A stretch of DNA of 64,000 nucleotides from Nitrospinales bacterium. Lineage in GTDB: Bacteria > Nitrospinota > Nitrospinia > Nitrospinales > VA-1. Position numbers and translations under genes: made by a program. The stretch covers positions 93,426-157,425 of the forward strand of contig CBDCWG010000007.1 of the NCBI GenBank assembly GCA_965223345.1, written 5' to 3'. Positions within the stretch are counted from its first letter, which is position 1, and the number at the start of each line of letters is the position of its first letter. Of this stretch, positions 11,736 through 31,504 are shown piece by piece. The notes under the pieces were generated by a model. The model was not told the origin of the DNA and searched no databases. It saw nothing but the letters and a program-made list of their open reading frames with translations.

Positions 11736-14570
<2,835 letters not shown>

Positions 14571-14595
14571 AAAAATATAAATATTCCAAGTAATA

Positions 14596-15789
14596 TTAGT
14601 CACCCTCTGGATCAACAAAGGGTTTCAGTTTTCTGTTAACAAAATGACTAGGCCGCCAACCGCCGAATATTTTTTCAATTAAAAATGTGTTACATGCGGA
14701 TACACCAGTACCAATAATCGGGTCAGCCATTCCTGCTCCCCGGCTAAGAAGGTACCGCAAACCTTTTGCTGGAATTTTGCTAATCCACCCTTTATTCGCC
14801 ATTTCATTCATATACTGGCGCACAAAGTTTTCATCAGGATTTATTCCTACGATCCATTCTTTAAATTTATCGGCCTCATCCAAAAGAATTAAAAATTCAT
14901 CAAATGATCTTTCCCCACTATTAATCACTTCCCGTATAGCTCTACCATTATTAAGAACAATTTCTTGAAACTGATCTTTTTCAGAAATTTCTAAACCAAT
15001 CCTGCGCATTAACTCTATATTGCGAATGCGAATAATATCCGAACAAACATCTGAGGTATAGTACTCACCTCCATAATGAGCTGCTAGCATTAACTCACTT
15101 TTCGCAGTAAGAATGTTTCCTATCAGTTGCGCTTCTGTCACATCCTCCGAAGAGGGTTTGTTTGATCGATATAACCTGTTCAACTCTTCGAAATTAAGAT
15201 TCGTGTTAATGTGAAATGATGGTCGATTTAATTCAACCCTGAAAAAAAAATCACTAGGCAGCGGAATTCCTGGAAGCATTTTTGAAATTACACATCGAAT
15301 TGCTTCATCAATGAAACCCTCATCTTCTAGATCATCTAAAGCAGCTTGTATAAGACCTCCTTTTGTGAAGTAATTACTATTTAACTTTTTGGTCGGAACT
15401 TCATTGGAGAATCTTTCAGTCAACTTTTTTGCTTCCCTTTTTTTGTATCCTCTTCGTTGCAGAATATCCCGCAACCTTTTTTTACGTGAAGGTAGTTCAC
15501 CAGATTCTTTGCTACCAGCATACGTAACCGATACAAATGAATGAATCCGCCGTCCAGCCTTTGTCTCTGATTTAGTACCAAGTTGATCCTCACAATAGAC
15601 GGCCGAAAAATTTGTTTTTTTTAATAATTTAAGTATGGTTTTAAAACCAATTGTAGAATCAAGTCCGACTAAGCTGCCGTGGCCCAAAACTAAATGAACG
15701 TTTTGGTAGTAAAATAGGGCTTCCGCGAGCTCACCTGCTGTAATTGCAGCCCCTCCCTCAGAACGACGAAGAATTACTTTTTCAAACAT
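14596..15789 (-). CDS. hypothetical 397-aa protein encoded in a very AT-rich single-gene islet
   Basis: Long clean ORF in a segment with roughly 35-40% GC, against about 63% in the flanks. No domain recognised. Confidence 0.6.
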   Translation of the reverse strand: MFEKVILRRSEGGAAITAGELAEALFYYQNVHLVLGHGSLVGLDSTIGFKTILKLLKKTNFSAVYCEDQLGTKSETKAGRRIHSFVSVTYAGSKESGELPSRKKRLRDILQRRGYKKREAKKLTERFSNEVPTKKLNSNYFTKGGLIQAALDDLEDEGFIDEAIRCVISKMLPGIPLPSDFFFRVELNRPSFHINTNLNFEELNRLYRSNKPSSEDVTEAQLIGNILTAKSELMLAAHYGGEYYTSDVCSDIIRIRNIELMRRIGLEISEKDQFQEIVLNNGRAIREVINSGERSFDEFLILLDEADKFKEWIVGINPDENFVRQYMNEMANKGWISKIPAKGLRYLLSRGAGMADPIIGTGVSACNTFLIEKIFGGWRPSHFVNRKLKPFVDPEGD

Positions 15790-15938
15790 TTACCCTTATC
15801 ATTCAATTATTTATATGGAAGGATCTGAAGGTATTTAGAGATCGCACACTGGTTTCAAAAAGCGCTGATCTGATTGATTATATAGCCTATTTAAACTCGA
15901 ACGAAAATTATCGAGTCTAATTTGTTGGATGCAGGGTT

Positions 15939-15958
15939 TAAAAAGTACGAGGGTGTAC
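15939..15958 (-). terminator. weak intrinsic terminator after atpC
   Basis: Minus-strand AGTAC-ACCCTC-GTACT hairpin followed by TTTTTAAA. The 5-bp stem makes it weak. Confidence 0.25.
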
Positions 15959-16368
15959 TAATTCTCTTCGGTGTGTTCGAGGCGGGCGATGGCGCGGAAG
16001 AGCTTGAGCTGGGTTTCCTCGAATTCCTTTTCGCTGAGATCGGCGCGGCCCAGGATCTCTTCGGCCTTGGCTTTGGCGGCTTCGGCGCGGGCGCGATCGA
16101 CTTCGTGCAGGAATTCGGCGGTTTCGGCGAGGACGGTGACGCGGTTTTCGGTCACTTCGAGGTAACCGCCGCTGACGACGAGGCCGGTGGTCTTGCCATC
16201 GACTTCATAGGACAGCGGGCCGGGCCGGAGGTTGGTGATGAGCGCGGCGTGGTCGTACAGGATGCCGAGGTCGCCCTCGATGCCGGGGGCATTGACCTGA
16301 TCGACGAATTGCTCGACGACGTTTTTCTCGGGGGTGACGAGGTGCAGCAGCAGTTTGTTTTCGGCCAT
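15958..16368 (-). CDS. atpC: F1 ATP synthase epsilon subunit
   Basis: MAENKLLLHLVTPEKNV... Confidence 0.85.
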   Translation of the reverse strand: MAENKLLLHLVTPEKNVVEQFVDQVNAPGIEGDLGILYDHAALITNLRPGPLSYEVDGKTTGLVVSGGYLEVTENRVTVLAETAEFLHEVDRARAEAAKAKAEEILGRADLSEKEFEETQLKLFRAIARLEHTEEN

Positions 16369-16500
16369 GGTTGCGTGTTTTTCTCGGTCGTGTTGAATCT
16401 TATCTGTGACGGTCACCCTTCGCCAGGCTCAAGGTGACGACGATCCACGGGTCTGGACGCCGGGTCGGCGGCTCGGCGGCCACTCGGTGTCCAGGCTTTC

Positions 16501-25831: not shown

Positions 25832-27781
25832 ATGAGCGACAACGCAAAAAAATTCTACGTGACCACACCGATTTACTACGTGAACGACGTGCCGCACATC
25901 GGGCACGCGTACACCACCATCGCGGCCGATGTGATCGCGCGCTACAAAAAGCTCGACGGCCATGAGGTGTTCTTTCTCACCGGCACCGACGAACACGGGC
26001 AGAAGGTGCATCAGGCGGCGAAGGATCTGGGCGTCTCGGCGCAGGAACACGTGGACAAATTGAATGGGCGCTTCAAGGAGCTCTGGGTGCGCCTCAACAT
26101 CACGAACAACGATTTCATCCGCACCACCGAGGAGCGGCACAAAAAGGTGGTGCGCGAAATCCTCACCGATCTGTACGAGCGCAAGGAGATCTACAAGGAC
26201 ACTTACGAGGGCTGGTACTGCACGCCGGACGAGCGGTTCTGGACGGAGAAGGACCTGGTCAACGGCAACTGCCCGGAATGCGGCCGCAAGGTGGACAAGA
26301 TCCGCGAGCACAATTATTTTTTCAAGATGGGGCAGCACCGCGACTGGCTCGCAGATCACATCAAAAACAACGAGCACTTCATCCTGCCGGCTTCGCGGCG
26401 CAACGAGGTGCTGGGTTTTCTGAACAAGCCGCTGGAGGATCTGTGCATCTCGCGGCCGGTGGAGCGGATGCCCTGGGGCATCCCCCTGCCCTTCGACGAA
26501 AAATACGTCACCTACGTCTGGTTCGACGCGCTCATCAACTACATCTCGATCTTCGGCTCGCCCGATGCGATCCGCAGTTCGGGCTTCTGGCCGGCCGACC
26601 ACCACCTGGTGGGCAAGGACATCCTCACCACGCACGCGGTGTACTGGTCCACCATGCTGAAAGCGATCGGGCTGGACCTGCCGAAAAACATCTTCGCACA
26701 CGGCTGGTGGACGGTGAACGGGCAGAAGATGTCGAAATCGCTGCGCAATGTGGTGGAACCCAACCTGCTGATCGATCAGTTCGGCGTGGACGTGATCCGC
26801 TACTTCCTCATGCGCGAGGTGCCGTTCGGCCTGGACGGGGACTTTTCGCACAAGGCGCTGATCGGCAGGCAGAACAGCGATCTCGCCAACAACCTGGGCA
26901 ACTGCCTCAACCGCACCGTCAAGATGATGCACAAGTATTTCGACAACGGCGTAATCCCGGAACCCGGCGAGAGCGGCCCGGAGGACGCCGGCCTCAAAGA
27001 CACCGCCGCCAGGACGGTGGCGGAGGTGAAAAAACTCTACGACGATCTGGCGTACAACAAGATCCTCACGGAAATCTGGATCCTGGTGGACGCGACGAAC
27101 CAGTACATCGACAAGGCGGGTCCCTGGAACCTGGTGAAGACCGAAGAAGGCAAACAGCGCCTCAAGACGGTGATGTACAACGCCGCCGAATCGCTGCGCG
27201 TCGTGGCGATGCTGATCTATCCGTTCATGCCGCAGTCGGCCGAGAGCATGATGCAGCAGCTCGGCGTCGAAACGCCGATCGATAAACAGGGCATGGCTTC
27301 GGTGGAACAATGGGGCGGATTGCCCTCCGGCAAGCCCACGAAACCCGGTGCGCAACTGTTCCCGCGCATCGACGACAAGGCCGCGGCGAAGCTGCTGGCG
27401 GCGGCGGGAGCGGACGAAAAACCCCAGGCGCCCGCGAAAAAACCGGAAGCGCAGGACGGCCAGGTTTCGATCGACGATTTCATGAAGATCGATCTGCGCA
27501 CCGGCACCATCGTGGAAGCGGAGAAGGTGAAAAAATCGCGCAAGCTGGTCAAGCTGCAGGTGGACATCGGCAGCGAGACGCGGCAGGTGGTGGCGGGCAT
27601 CGCCGAAGCCTACGAGCCGCAGGACCTGGTGGGCAAGACCATCATCCTGGTGGCCAACCTGAAACCGGCGAAGCTGATGGGCATCGAATCGCAGGGCATG
27701 GTGCTGGCGGCGAGCGACGACGACAAAGTGCTGCTGGCCGGGTTCGCAGAAGAACCGGCGAAAGGAGTCCGCGTCAAATGA
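25832..27781 (+). CDS. metG: methionine--tRNA ligase with C-terminal tRNA-binding domain
   Basis: HIGH motif (PHIGHAYT), KMSKS motif, C-terminal EMAP-like domain. Confidence 0.95.
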   Translation: MSDNAKKFYVTTPIYYVNDVPHIGHAYTTIAADVIARYKKLDGHEVFFLTGTDEHGQKVHQAAKDLGVSAQEHVDKLNGRFKELWVRLNITNNDFIRTTEERHKKVVREILTDLYERKEIYKDTYEGWYCTPDERFWTEKDLVNGNCPECGRKVDKIREHNYFFKMGQHRDWLADHIKNNEHFILPASRRNEVLGFLNKPLEDLCISRPVERMPWGIPLPFDEKYVTYVWFDALINYISIFGSPDAIRSSGFWPADHHLVGKDILTTHAVYWSTMLKAIGLDLPKNIFAHGWWTVNGQKMSKSLRNVVEPNLLIDQFGVDVIRYFLMREVPFGLDGDFSHKALIGRQNSDLANNLGNCLNRTVKMMHKYFDNGVIPEPGESGPEDAGLKDTAARTVAEVKKLYDDLAYNKILTEIWILVDATNQYIDKAGPWNLVKTEEGKQRLKTVMYNAAESLRVVAMLIYPFMPQSAESMMQQLGVETPIDKQGMASVEQWGGLPSGKPTKPGAQLFPRIDDKAAAKLLAAAGADEKPQAPAKKPEAQDGQVSIDDFMKIDLRTGTIVEAEKVKKSRKLVKLQVDIGSETRQVVAGIAEAYEPQDLVGKTIILVANLKPAKLMGIESQGMVLAASDDDKVLLAGFAEEPAKGVRVK

Positions 27782-29169
27782 CGATCGACACGCACGCCCA
27801 TCTGGACATGGATTCCTTCGACACCGACCGGCAGGAGGTGATCCAAAGGGCCCAGGAACAGGGCGTGGATTACATCCTCAACATCGGCTGCGACGTGGAA
27901 AGCAGCGTCCGCTCGCTGGAGCTGGCCGAGCGCTACGATTTCATCTACGCCACGGCGGGGGTGCACCCGCACGACGTCAAGTCGATCAACGGCACCACCT
28001 ACGCGGACCTCAAGCGGTTGCTCGCGCACCCGAAGATGATCGCGGTGGGAGAGATCGGGCTGGATTTTTATAAGAACTACTCGCCGCAGGACATGCAGAA
28101 AGAGCACCTGCGCAAGCAGATGCAATTGGCGAAAGAGGTGGACAAGCCCATCATCGTGCACTGCCGCGACGCCAAGGAGGACATGATCGCCATCCTGTCC
28201 GAGTATTACCCGGTGAACGAGAAGGCCCGATCGGGCATCTTTCACTGCTTCTCGGGCGATCAGGAACTGGCGGAAGCGGCGCTGGAACGCGGCTTCTACA
28301 TTTCGTTTTCCGGATCGGTGACGTTCAAAAAATCCGACGAACTGCGCGAGGTGGCGAAGACGATCCCGGCGGACCGGCTGTTCGCCGAGACGGACTGCCC
28401 CTACCTTGCGCCGGTGCCCAAGCGCGGCAAGCGCAACGAACCGGCGTACGTGAACTTCACCACCGAACACCTGGCCGAGATCCGCGGGCTCAGGCTGGAG
28501 GATGTCAAGCGCACGATGGAGCTGAACTTTTTCGAGCTGTTCGGCATCGGCAAAAACGCCCCGATGGGCACGGTCTCCTATCAGATCCGCAACTCGCTGT
28601 ATCTCAACCTGACGACGCGGTGTACCAACGACTGCGTGTTCTGCTCGCGCCTGACCCGGCCGGTGGTGCAGGGCTACAACCTCAAGCTGGAGCGCGAACC
28701 GTCCGCAGAGGAAGTGTGGGCGGCGATCGACGACCCGGCGAAATACGATGAAGTGGTGTTCTGCGGTTACGGCGAGCCGACGCTCAGGCTGAACGTCATC
28801 AAGGAAGTGGCGAAAAAGATCAAGGACGCCGGCGGCCGCGTGCGGCTCAACACCAACGGCCACGGCAACGTCATCAACAAGCGCAACATCCTGCCGGAAC
28901 TGGCCGGACTGGTGGACGAGGTGTCGGTGAGCCTCAACACCGACACCGGCGATGCTTACGATGAGATCTGCCGGCCGCTGCCGGGATTCCGCAACGGCAT
29001 CTACGGCAAGATCAAGGAATTCATCGCGGAGGCCAAGATTCACATCCCCAAGGTGCAGGCCACGATCGTGACGCAGCAGGAAGGCGTGGACGAAACGGTC
29101 TGCGAGGACATCGTCAAAAAAGAATTCGGCGTGGACTACCGGGCCCGGCGCTACAACCTGGTCGGATGA
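27778..29169 (+). CDS. TatD-family hydrolase fused to a C-terminal radical SAM domain
   Basis: N-terminal TatD (MTIDTHAHLDMD...). C-terminal half carries a CTNDCVFC CxxxCxxC motif. The ATG overlaps the metG stop. Start taken at Met157 of the track ORF. Confidence 0.8.
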   Translation: MTIDTHAHLDMDSFDTDRQEVIQRAQEQGVDYILNIGCDVESSVRSLELAERYDFIYATAGVHPHDVKSINGTTYADLKRLLAHPKMIAVGEIGLDFYKNYSPQDMQKEHLRKQMQLAKEVDKPIIVHCRDAKEDMIAILSEYYPVNEKARSGIFHCFSGDQELAEAALERGFYISFSGSVTFKKSDELREVAKTIPADRLFAETDCPYLAPVPKRGKRNEPAYVNFTTEHLAEIRGLRLEDVKRTMELNFFELFGIGKNAPMGTVSYQIRNSLYLNLTTRCTNDCVFCSRLTRPVVQGYNLKLEREPSAEEVWAAIDDPAKYDEVVFCGYGEPTLRLNVIKEVAKKIKDAGGRVRLNTNGHGNVINKRNILPELAGLVDEVSVSLNTDTGDAYDEICRPLPGFRNGIYGKIKEFIAEAKIHIPKVQATIVTQQEGVDETVCEDIVKKEFGVDYRARRYNLVG

Positions 29170-29651
29170 GCGTTCCCGAGGCGGGGCCGGACTCCCCGCA
29201 AGCAGGAGGTCCCATGAATCCCGATGAGCAGCCCCTCTCCCCTGCCCCGAAAGCGCGCGGCGTCGGCTGGATCTCTCTGGGAGCCCTCTTCGGCGGGCTG
29301 AGCGTGATGCTGGGGGCGTTCGGCGCGCATTCCCTCAAAGAGCGCCTGACCGAAAAGAGTCTCGCCACCTTTCACACCGCAACCGATTACCTCGCCTACC
29401 ACGCCATCGCCATCGTGCTGGTGGGCATCCTTTCGTTGATGCTCGGCGAACGCGGGCACCGGGCGCTGAAAAAAGTCGGCCTGTTTTTCACCGCGGGCAT
29501 CCTGCTTTTTTCCGGCAGCCTGTACGCCCTCGCCTTCGACGGACCGCGCTTTTTCGGCCCCGTCACCCCCTTCGGCGGCCTCTGCTTCATGATCGGCTGG
29601 TTCACCTTGGCCGTCACCCTCGCCAAAAACTTCCGCTCGAAACGGGATTAA
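29166..29651 (+). CDS. DUF423 family membrane protein
   Basis: Four TM helices. Contains GAFGAH. Confidence 0.7.
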   Translation: MSVPEAGPDSPQAGGPMNPDEQPLSPAPKARGVGWISLGALFGGLSVMLGAFGAHSLKERLTEKSLATFHTATDYLAYHAIAIVLVGILSLMLGERGHRALKKVGLFFTAGILLFSGSLYALAFDGPRFFGPVTPFGGLCFMIGWFTLAVTLAKNFRSKRD

Positions 29652-29696
29652 AATTCTAAAAAAGCCCGCAAACCTTTTTTGGGTATTTAAATTTAG

Positions 29697-30644
29697 ATGT
29701 CGAAAGACAGCCCAGATATTCTCCAATGCCCCTGTCAAGAAATCCACAAGGTTGAGCATGATGATATCTTGTTAAAACTTGAAAAAATTAGGGAAACTTG
29801 TCCTGCTTTAAAAAGCATCCTCATCCCCGATCGTGGATGGCATGAATATAAAAATTGGCATAAAAAAGATGACACGGTGGCATTTCATAGATCAATTCTA
29901 CTTATGGGCTTGAAAGATGGTTTTTTAGGAAACATAACAATTCTAATCCATAAATATTGTTTAGATAAACACGACATAAATCCCAATGTAAAAAAGCAAT
30001 ACATTAAAGACCTAGAGGAAAAATGGTTTAGCAAAACTGATTATAAAGAGCGACACAAAAAGTACCGAATTTTTATGGGCAAAATTGTTGAGTTAGCTTT
30101 TTCAAATTGGCTAGAAAGTAAGGAATACACCATATCAAACTTAGAGGCGTGGAGTGGGCAATATGACATAACTGCCTACAAGGAAAAGTTGACCTATAAT
30201 TTTGAGATAAAGTTTATCGGGCAGGAAGATGAGGATTTTAAGCACATTGTAAATAATCTTCGAGGAGGAACCTCTGTAGGTGGCGTTTCCCCTTATATAG
30301 CAGCAAACTTTCTCCTTTTTAGAGTATATGAGGCTGCTAAACAATTAGAGAATGCAAAAGGACCTGAACATCGAGTTGCAACAATAATTATTGATGGAAT
30401 GGCTTTTCCATATTTTAAAATTCTAATATTGGATCATTGGATCGATTGGTTTGAGCATCCGACTTTTAATGAAACTAGTGATCCAACTTGGGAGGAGTTT
30501 ATTGCATCTCAACGGAGCAAAAAATACCCCGATATTGATCATGAATTGCCAGAATTACTAAAAAAATTATCTGCGATAAAAATAATGAAAATAAATGGGT
30601 TCCAACTTGAAGAAGTAATTAAGTACAAAAACCCAAATATATAA
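29697..30644 (+). CDS. hypothetical 315-aa protein in a second very AT-rich single-gene islet (possible PD-(D/E)xK-like motif)
   Basis: The segment is roughly 33% GC. Contains D-x13-E-x-K (YDITAYKEKLTYNFEIKF), which is weak inference only. Confidence 0.6.
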   Translation: MSKDSPDILQCPCQEIHKVEHDDILLKLEKIRETCPALKSILIPDRGWHEYKNWHKKDDTVAFHRSILLMGLKDGFLGNITILIHKYCLDKHDINPNVKKQYIKDLEEKWFSKTDYKERHKKYRIFMGKIVELAFSNWLESKEYTISNLEAWSGQYDITAYKEKLTYNFEIKFIGQEDEDFKHIVNNLRGGTSVGGVSPYIAANFLLFRVYEAAKQLENAKGPEHRVATIIIDGMAFPYFKILILDHWIDWFEHPTFNETSDPTWEEFIASQRSKKYPDIDHELPELLKKLSAIKIMKINGFQLEEVIKYKNPNI

Positions 30645-30676
30645 ATCCCCAAATATTTACATTCCTCTTCTTCTAT

Positions 30677-31504
30677 TCACCCCCTGAATCTAAACTTCAC
30701 GCCCCACTTTCTGTAGGCGAGATAGAGCGCCAGCGACATGAGGCTGAGCACCAAAAGGTGCGGGCCGAGGAAGGCGGCGTTCCAGATGGGGCCGAAGCGC
30801 AGCTCGCCGCGCACTTCGCCGGTGTAGTGCTTGAGCATCTCGGCGTATTCGATCATCAGGTGCACGGGGTAGTTCACTTCATGGCTCTCGGGGGTTCGCT
30901 CGACGGGAACCTCGAACAGCTTCTGCTCACCGCCGCGCAGGGTGAAGCCCACCATTCCCTTGAAGGTGTCGGCGACCAGGCCGGGCGGCATGAGCAGCAT
31001 CAGCCGCACATTCTTGAGCGCCGGGGACTGGTTCGTTAAAAGGATCTTCAGCCGCGTCTCACCGCTTTCCTCCACGCTTTCGATCTTTCCTGCCACCTGC
31101 GATTCCACCTGCTCGCGGTAATAAAACGAATCGGTGTGAATCAGGCTTTGCGATGTTTTGTCTGAGGGCTGGTTGCGGTAGTGCACCATGGCGATCAGCG
31201 GATAGCGCCCGACGCTGCGCACCGGCGGATGGTCGGAATTTTTCATCGTGATGGACTGGCCGGGGTCGAGTTTGCGGAGATGGGTCAGCATGGCCATGGT
31301 GTGGTGGAAATGGATCATGGGGTGCACGTGGTGCAGGGTCCGGTCGCTGCGGTTTTCCAGGGTCAGAAACACGTGCACCTTTCCCTCTTCGCTGACCTGG
31401 GTCTGGGTGGAAATGTGCAGGGGGGCTGTGTTCGCCCAAGCCGGCTTTATCGGAACGGCGGCGCAAACGAAAAGGAGGCCTGCGCCTAAAGCTAGGATTT
31501 TCAT
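30677..31504 (-). CDS. secreted, C-terminally membrane-anchored protein with a His-rich segment
   Basis: Signal peptide. HHVHPMIHFHH motif. C-terminal TM helix. Divergent from the SPFH operon. Confidence 0.55.
   Translation of the reverse strand: MKILALGAGLLFVCAAVPIKPAWANTAPLHISTQTQVSEEGKVHVFLTLENRSDRTLHHVHPMIHFHHTMAMLTHLRKLDPGQSITMKNSDHPPVRSVGRYPLIAMVHYRNQPSDKTSQSLIHTDSFYYREQVESQVAGKIESVEESGETRLKILLTNQSPALKNVRLMLLMPPGLVADTFKGMVGFTLRGGEQKLFEVPVERTPESHEVNYPVHLMIEYAEMLKHYTGEVRGELRFGPIWNAAFLGPHLLVLSLMSLALYLAYRKWGVKFRFRG

Follow-up and report, generated by a model that had tools for sequence, protein, structure and literature searches.

Solitary PD-(D/E)xK nucleases in variable genome regions are a familiar theme, and several described systems offer points of reference for the gene reported here. 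XisH, the fdxN-element excision controlling factor of cyanobacteria (PF08814; PDB 2okf/2inb), is a protein of ~130 aa that acts together with XisI and occurs mostly in cyanobacteria (PMC3424549); in the archaeal Holliday junction resolvase Hjc, mutagenesis has identified E9, D33, E46 and K48 as essential for catalysis (PMC10956419). Larger arrangements are found in the modification-dependent Type IV restriction enzymes, Mrr among them, where a solitary PD-(D/E)xK nuclease carries an extra recognition domain, has no methyltransferase and occurs in variable regions, and in Shedu (SduA, DUF4263), a single antiphage protein of defence islands in which a variable N-terminal domain is followed by the nuclease. 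The window, that is, the whole 64,000-nucleotide stretch of Nitrospinales DNA that was analysed, contains a gene for a 315-aa protein of this general kind, the position and parts of which are collected in Table 1. Against the background of these systems the case is plausible rather than surprising.

Table 1. Features of the islet, its flanking genes and the encoded protein (positions in the 64-kb window)
Feature	Position	Strand	Details
ORF of the first islet	14596..15789	-	397 aa, GC 0.383, GC3 0.29
Upstream native flank, DUF423 membrane protein	29166..29651	+	Pfam PF04241 at 3.9e-27; synteny in L012, L014
AT-rich leader, 45 bp	29652..29696	+	Left edge of foreign segment, directly after DUF423 stop codon
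Predicted nuclease gene, complete	29697..30644	+	ATG start, stop codon included, 315 aa
N-terminal all-helical domain, aa 1-115	29697..30041	+	Predicted secondary structure; C11, C13, C35, H64, H85 conserved
Predicted nuclease core, aa 116-233	30042..30395	+	AlphaFold2 model
E132 codon, putative first acidic catalytic residue, on core helix	30090..30092	+	100% in 104 members; aligns with Hjc E9
D157 codon, 'D' of PD-(D/E)xK	30165..30167	+	100% in 104 members; aligns with Hjc D33
E170-I171-K172 codons, '(D/E)xK'	30204..30212	+	E170 98%, K172 99%; align with Hjc E46, K48
C-terminal alpha/beta subdomain, aa 234-315	30396..30641	+	pLDDT 80-93; conserved only among closer relatives
Right edge of foreign segment	30645..30697	.	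32-bp trailer and divergent last codons of the convergent 275-aa gene
Downstream native flank, 275-aa membrane/secreted protein, Nitrospinota-specific	30677..31504	-	ORF; 108 homologues

The base composition of the gene sets it apart from its surroundings. A trough of GC 0.31-0.37 extends over ~1 kb (29700-30600) between regions of ~0.60-0.65, with a climb from 0.28 to 0.62 between 30625 and 30749 at the right edge and full recovery by 30750. The gene itself has a GC content of 0.345 and lies within the lowest-GC part of the 64 kb, as judged in 948-bp windows (minimum 0.339 at 29732; z = -4.67 for the window of the gene); its GC3 is 0.31, against 0.80-0.89 for MetG, DUF423, the 275-aa gene, Band7, the DUF4175-like gene and UvrA. 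The sequence-only reading of this DNA had described a ~1-kb AT-rich islet with a single 315-aa gene, which these values (GC 34.5%) bear out, and its count of two such islets in 64 kb is also right: a second AT-rich ORF, listed in Table 1 as that of the first islet, encodes a 397-aa protein that has no Pfam or PADLOC match and no sequence relatedness to the 315-aa protein. Because a stop-free frame of 315 codons has a chance probability of ~5e-12 at the local base composition, and because homologues exist, the 315-aa ORF is a real gene.

Both edges of the foreign segment can be placed by comparison with related genomes. Upstream, DUF423 is the last gene of a conserved metG / tatD-radical-SAM / DUF423 run; downstream, the 275-aa gene is convergent with both DUF423 and the gene of interest, and the organism names on its 108 homologues are all from Nitrospinota (Nitrospinaceae, Nitrospina, Nitrohelix and Nitromaritima among those named) with the single exception of a Candidatus Marinimicrobia MAG, which gives the lineage to which the host belongs. 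In the closest relative (L012, a 3.25-Mb contig), where the counterpart of the 275-aa protein is 74% identical, the genes follow the same order as in the window, holB-PSP1-metG-tatD/rSAM-DUF423 and then the convergent 274-aa-Band7-DUF4175, and the junction between DUF423 and the 274-aa gene is occupied by an unrelated, geneless spacer of 241 bp. Nucleotide identity between the two genomes is ~95% through the 3' end of DUF423, stops abruptly at its stop codon and restarts at ~30698, within the 3' end of the convergent gene. With the site empty in a relative of otherwise identical gene order, and with a composition that deviates from that of the flanks, the 315-aa gene was almost certainly acquired horizontally into the lineage of the window, and probably recently. 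The claim that it had been inserted between convergent native genes thus holds, given DUF423 on the plus strand, the 275-aa gene on the minus strand and the empty site of L012.

Among more distant relatives, L014 has a 69-aa DUF2283 gene at this junction and L013, which is rearranged, has an RNase-H-fold exonuclease-like gene, while in Candidatus Nitrohelix vancouverensis (L015) the two flanking genes overlap and have nothing between them; as its content differs among all four relatives, the spacer is a variable spot in Nitrospinota. The islet had further been said to lack mobility genes, and none was found: the annotated immediate flanking genes include no integrase or transposase, the whole 64-kb window contains no tRNA, and no direct or inverted repeat scars beyond chance flank the insert. 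No defence, toxin-antitoxin (TA) or mobility gene was seen adjoining the gene in the window. Whatever the function of its product, the locus represents a clean, datable case of a single gene gained at a hotspot of variation in Nitrospinota, the spacer between two convergent genes. That mobility genes and insertion scars are both missing is relevant to the way in which islets of this sort enter genomes.

An AlphaFold2 model of the 315-aa protein, built from a six-sequence alignment (pTM 0.81, mean pLDDT 77), consists of three parts: a helical N-region, a core and a C-terminal subdomain. The predicted core is made of a helix (116-141), three strands (145-149, 158-162 and 165-174), two helices (179-188 and 199-217) and a last strand (225-233), in the order alpha-beta-beta-beta-alpha-beta that defines the PD-(D/E)xK superfamily fold. 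Its conserved acidic and basic residues occupy the positions expected of an active site of this superfamily, with a glutamate on the helix, an aspartate on strand 2 and the (D/E)xK element on strand 3, and are conserved at 98-100% in an alignment of 104 diverse family members. In a comparison of the family profile with P. furiosus Hjc, the sequence of which is identical to 1gef_A, these residues align with the four catalytic positions of that enzyme, in an alignment that is statistically weak (hhalign E 0.016, probability 2.8%). The fold, the position of the motif within it and its conservation together support a nuclease core, and the protein very probably adopts, as modelled, a PD-(D/E)xK fold whose active site is intact. 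A restriction-endonuclease-like core had been suspected from the letters of the window on the strength of a D-x13-ExK arrangement; the model contains such a core and the motif is present, and its spacing is x12 (D157-x12-E170-x-K172) rather than x13.

Structural comparison of the model places XisH (2okf) first, with a figure of 8.4, followed by SfsA (7.1), AF1548 (6.6), NucS (6.5), Hjc (6.4), SdaI (6.4), YraN (6.2) and Vsr (6.0), and, lower in the list, by PaqCI, CdiA-CT toxins, HindIII, Can2, NucC and HamA. Foldseek searches of the PDB and of the viral models of BFVD gave no match at E <= 0.001, and their weak lists include many nucleases of PD-(D/E)xK type.

The regions on either side of the core are less easily placed. 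Within the helical N-domain, C11 and C13 are conserved in 88% of the 104 members, C35 in 95%, H64 in 89% and H85 in 96%, and the members that lack C11 and C13 are N-terminal truncations. The resulting pattern, CxC-x21-C-x28-H-x20-H, differs from the two short N-terminal Cys pairs that had been reported, as there is a single CxC pair (C11 and C13) and a lone C35; judged from its sequence conservation, this Cys/His set is a probable structural metal site. It is not a Cas4/AddB-type Fe-S arrangement, because C11, C13 and C35 are all N-terminal and no conserved cysteine follows the core, whereas in the four-Cys cluster of Cas4/RecB-like nucleases one cysteine precedes the core and a CxxCxxxxxC-type set comes later. 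Modelled alone, the N-domain has low confidence (pLDDT 52), which suggests that, instead of forming an independent unit, it packs against the core. It has been matched to neither a fold nor a family, and may serve as a recognition module.

How the gene is expressed is suggested by its position. No sigma-70-like promoter, Shine-Dalgarno sequence or terminator was recognised for it, and the 45-bp leader has no significant RNA structure, including no terminator structure between DUF423 and the gene. The gene shares the orientation of the metG / tatD-rSAM / DUF423 run and starts only 45 bp beyond its end. In view of this, and as no promoter specific to the gene is recognisable, it would probably be transcribed by read-through from that run.

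The family of the 315-aa protein is described in none of the libraries searched and is a new one within a well-known superfamily. Neither Pfam, NCBIfam, PADLOC and PHROGs nor PDB sequence profiles, the latter searched with 6- and 99-sequence alignments, gave a significant match to the 315-aa protein; among 99 family members, sub-threshold matches to NOV_C, UPF0102 and SduA are limited to 1-4 sequences, and PADLOC matched none convincingly (0/99). A word-indexed protein search recovered only five relatives, at 38-43% identity. An HMMER profile search of 1.84 billion representatives of clusters formed at 50% identity found 450 clusters at E <= 1e-3, 251 of them at E <= 1e-30; nearly all are of ~300 aa and align end to end, and every member listed in the databases has no name or is called 'hypothetical'. 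Its distribution over Nitrospirota, Acidobacteriota, Bacteroidota and Nitrospinota is scattered, with sparse genome matches in Nitrospira/Nitrospirales, Vicinamibacterales, Bryobacterales, Terriglobia and an uncultured Bacteroidetes bacterium, and each member is found on just 1-3 contigs. Orthologues that were widespread core genes would have spoken against an islet of this kind, but they are not: the site of the closest relative is empty, distant Nitrospinota differ, and across phyla the family has a thin, patchy distribution.

Such patchiness, combined with the clean insertion of a lone nuclease gene in the absence of other mobility genes, is also what a selfish, free-standing homing-type endonuclease gene that had inserted itself at an intergenic site would leave behind. 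Every family locus has a different insertion site, however, and there are no near-identical copies, the cluster of the window protein consisting of one member on one contig; members differ from one another by 55-70%, unlike a recently spreading element, and no relatives were found in phage, plasmid and IMG/VR collections or in introns or inteins. A homing gene is consequently very improbable, the least likely of the alternatives considered.

The window protein has been seen once in 15 billion proteins, and this single sighting, together with extremely unadapted codon usage (GC3 0.31 against 0.85 for the host) and the lack of a recognised promoter, ribosome-binding site or terminator, would suit non-functional, hitch-hiking DNA, a silent recent transfer headed for decay. 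Against this stand the 315-codon frame, intact in AT-rich and stop-prone sequence (P ~5e-12), and the retention of every catalytic and Cys/His residue, so that a decaying passenger is improbable.

A different reading is prompted by the structural neighbours of the model, which favour a structure-specific repair, recombination or excision factor that nicks or resolves DNA structures in the style of Hjc, RecU, NucS, Vsr or XisH. Yet sister genomes lack the gene, and its composition is foreign; the distribution of the family, patchy across phyla with members on 1-3 contigs each, is unlike that of repair genes; there is no Pfam match to the XisH, Hjc, NucS or Vsr models; and no XisI-like or Dcm-like partner recurs. 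Although it is the strongest of the alternatives, a role of this type is unlikely.

Gene neighbourhoods were compared by calling and clustering ORFs at 40 family loci (~33 non-redundant), which were recovered with alignment A1, the deep alignment A2 being too divergent, and are thus biased towards closer relatives. Except between loci of the same genome region, no neighbouring gene family recurs across the 40 loci, and none of their annotated neighbours is a DNA methyltransferase; as no neighbour recurs, the family has no conserved partner, be it a methyltransferase, an antitoxin or an immunity gene. One or more neighbours could be annotated at 22 non-redundant loci, and ~11 of these have a conflict-type gene within a few kb, a raw count from environmental phyla in which TA genes are very common; the remaining half have only housekeeping or unannotated neighbours. 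The conflict-type neighbours comprise PemK/MazE (L001), HicB (L003), PIN toxins (L006 and L009), a HepT toxin (L008), a DDE transposase (L011), an IS3 fragment (L016) and integrases (L024 and L037, the latter with an additional CHAT-AAA-TPR STAND protein). At L017 there are an HSDR_N_2-like protein, RmuC and a TIR protein that matches PADLOC PDC-S35 at 4e-28, and at L019 an integrase, HEPN_AbiU2, PDDEXK_1, Shedu SduA_C and a transposase form one island.

In P0026, one of the members, the N-terminus is formed by a DUF2971 domain (2.8e-7); the linker that follows is Arg-rich and may be the product of ORF read-through instead of a true fusion. DUF2971, an ADP-ribosyltransferase domain of the DarT/AbiGi-like kind, makes up the lactococcal antiphage protein Aristaios (PMC12522546, PMC11381338).

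These neighbourhoods bear on two further explanations. The protein could be an orphan Type II restriction endonuclease whose cognate methyltransferase lies elsewhere or has been lost: its fold matches those of SdaI, HindIII, NgoMIV, Bse634I and PaqCI, and NotI, with its N-terminal Cys4 metal site, is in the weak Foldseek list. This is hard to reconcile with the absence of methyltransferases from the annotated neighbours and of any family recurring over the 40 loci, with the retention of the family as a solitary gene across phyla, and with the lethality to the host of a sequence-specific enzyme without protection; we regard it as improbable. About equally improbable is a toxin module, either a TA nuclease toxin or a CdiA-CT-like effector, with an immunity partner that is non-adjacent, very small or unrecognised. 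No conserved small ORF adjoins the gene; it occupies the whole insert, and its spacers of only 45 and 32 bp leave no room for an antitoxin. The protein has no secretion or delivery domain, and the TA genes found near its homologues are already complete pairs of their own kinds.

The lack of a conserved partner and of a methyltransferase, set beside the TA, integrase, Abi, Shedu and TIR neighbours of the homologues, makes a single-gene defence nuclease the most likely reading. We thus favour, with a modest degree of confidence, a recently acquired, stand-alone and metal-dependent PD-(D/E)xK DNA endonuclease with a defensive function as the best explanation of the locus. The defence role as such, argued from genomic context, is a serious possibility that we would place just short of probable; the suggestion that the islet carries defence or toxin cargo agrees with the neighbours of the homologues and is best kept conditional. 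In such an enzyme, E132, D157 and E170 would bind Mg2+ and K172 would complete the active site, as in Hjc and Type II restriction enzymes, while the helical N-domain would pack on the core and, with the C-terminal subdomain, supply substrate recognition. Like Type IV restriction enzymes or Shedu, it would attack foreign DNA. Because a solitary nuclease must spare the chromosome of its host, the enzyme is expected to select modified DNA, DNA ends or unusual structures. More tentatively, the ~450 clusters, which come from nitrite oxidisers and phyla of soil or sediment and chiefly from uncultured Nitrospirota, Acidobacteriota, Bacteroidota and Nitrospinota, may represent a previously unrecognised family of single-gene antiphage or anti-plasmid systems, whose Cys/His N-domain would sense a feature of the invading DNA and license the core. 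Should the defence reading be true, a compact (~300 aa), partner-free nuclease family with a new recognition domain would join the defence repertoire of environmentally important and poorly studied phyla, including the nitrite-oxidising Nitrospinota and Nitrospirota.

Measured against the described systems, the protein resembles XisH in structure only, at 8% identity: the XisH Pfam profile has no match at E <= 1 in the window protein and none at E <= 0.01 among the members (0/99), and unlike XisH the 315-aa protein has extra N- and C-terminal domains and no partner. To Hjc (PDB 1gef) and YraN/UPF0102 (PDB 3fov) the sequence signal is sub-significant, with UPF0102 matching 1/99 members; both are minimal proteins of ~120 aa and core genes of their lineages, whereas the gene in the window is accessory and encodes a three-domain protein. 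Two other candidate classes were rejected, Type II restriction-modification since no DNA methyltransferase is among the annotated neighbours and no neighbour is conserved over the 40 loci, and the toxin-antitoxin module since there is no conserved adjacent partner and the insert leaves only 45 + 32 bp on the two sides of the gene. NotI-type and Vsr-type endonucleases possess a Cys/His metal site, but the CxC-x21-C-x28-H-x20-H helical domain matches neither, and no similarity in sequence was found. The Shedu layout of a distinct N-terminal domain followed by the nuclease within one protein is shared, and in one case a homologue and a Shedu gene are 3 kb apart; membership was nevertheless rejected, given that the SduA model matches 1/99 members (E 0.0067) and that there is no SduA_C/DUF4263 match in Pfam. 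With Type IV restriction enzymes of the Mrr kind, finally, the protein has in common a solitary PD-(D/E)xK nuclease, an additional candidate recognition domain, the lack of a methyltransferase and residence in a variable region; it has no Pfam or PADLOC match to Mrr_cat or to a known modified-base reader domain, and differs from Mrr in that its N-domain is all-helical and carries the conserved cysteines and histidines.

Only two tracts in the whole window fall below 0.40 GC: the islet that encodes the 315-aa predicted PD-(D/E)xK protein, between the convergent DUF423 and 275-aa genes, and a first islet that consists of a single 397-aa ORF (GC 0.383, GC3 0.29) flanked by uvrA and atpC (table). 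The 397-aa protein has no match in Pfam or PADLOC and is unrelated in sequence to the 315-aa protein.

The spacer between the DUF423 and 275-aa genes is a variable hotspot in Nitrospinota, being occupied by other genes in two relatives (L013 and L014), reduced to an overlap in Candidatus Nitrohelix (L015) and filled in the closest relative (L012) by a short sequence unrelated to that of the window. The Candidatus Nitrohelix genome has DUF423 directly adjoining both atpC and the ATP synthase operon; since DUF423 and atpC each border one islet in the window, both islets may coincide with breaks in synteny between the window and that genome. Upstream of DUF423 lies a gene whose product has both a TatD-type hydrolase and a radical-SAM domain, and its position beside metG is conserved in Nitrospinota; the product is 463 aa long in relatives, and the longest ORF for it in the window overlaps metG, its first codon being far ahead of the probable real start.

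Coordinates of the islets, their flanking genes and the corresponding or related loci
Feature	Sequence	Position	Strand	Remark
uvrA	window	11736..14570	+	one flank of first islet
First islet, single 397-aa ORF	window	14596-15789	-	low-GC tract about 14460-16060
atpC	window	15958..16416	-	other flank of first islet
TatD-type hydrolase/radical-SAM gene	window	27310-29169	+	upstream of DUF423
DUF423 gene	window	29166-29651	+	borders nuclease islet
241-bp spacer	L012	6826-7066		sequence unrelated to window's
RNase-H-fold exonuclease-like gene in spacer	L013	7195-7830		plus rearrangement
DUF2283 gene in spacer	L014	6896-7105
DUF423/275-aa gene overlap	L015	6767-6786
DUF423 next to atpC and ATP synthase operon	L015	6767-7585
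Integrase-bounded island with family member	L019	4805-14003
STAND-like gene next to family member	L037	1738-5844

Among the homologues of the 315-aa protein, the metagenome protein P0026 (639 aa) carries at its N-terminus a DUF2971 domain (ART-like, Aristaios-type). A low-complexity linker rich in Arg connects this domain with the nuclease, and the arrangement is either a real fusion or a read-through of two adjacent genes. At locus L037, a family member is immediately preceded by the gene for a 1368-aa CHAT protease/AAA_16/TPR (STAND-like) protein and followed downstream by a tyrosine integrase. Finally, the family member at locus L019 is located inside an integrase-bounded island together with HEPN_AbiU2, a PDDEXK_1 protein, Shedu (SduA_C), a Mutator-type transposase and several unannotated ORFs; this island, within which there could be further unknown systems, looks like a compact defence island.
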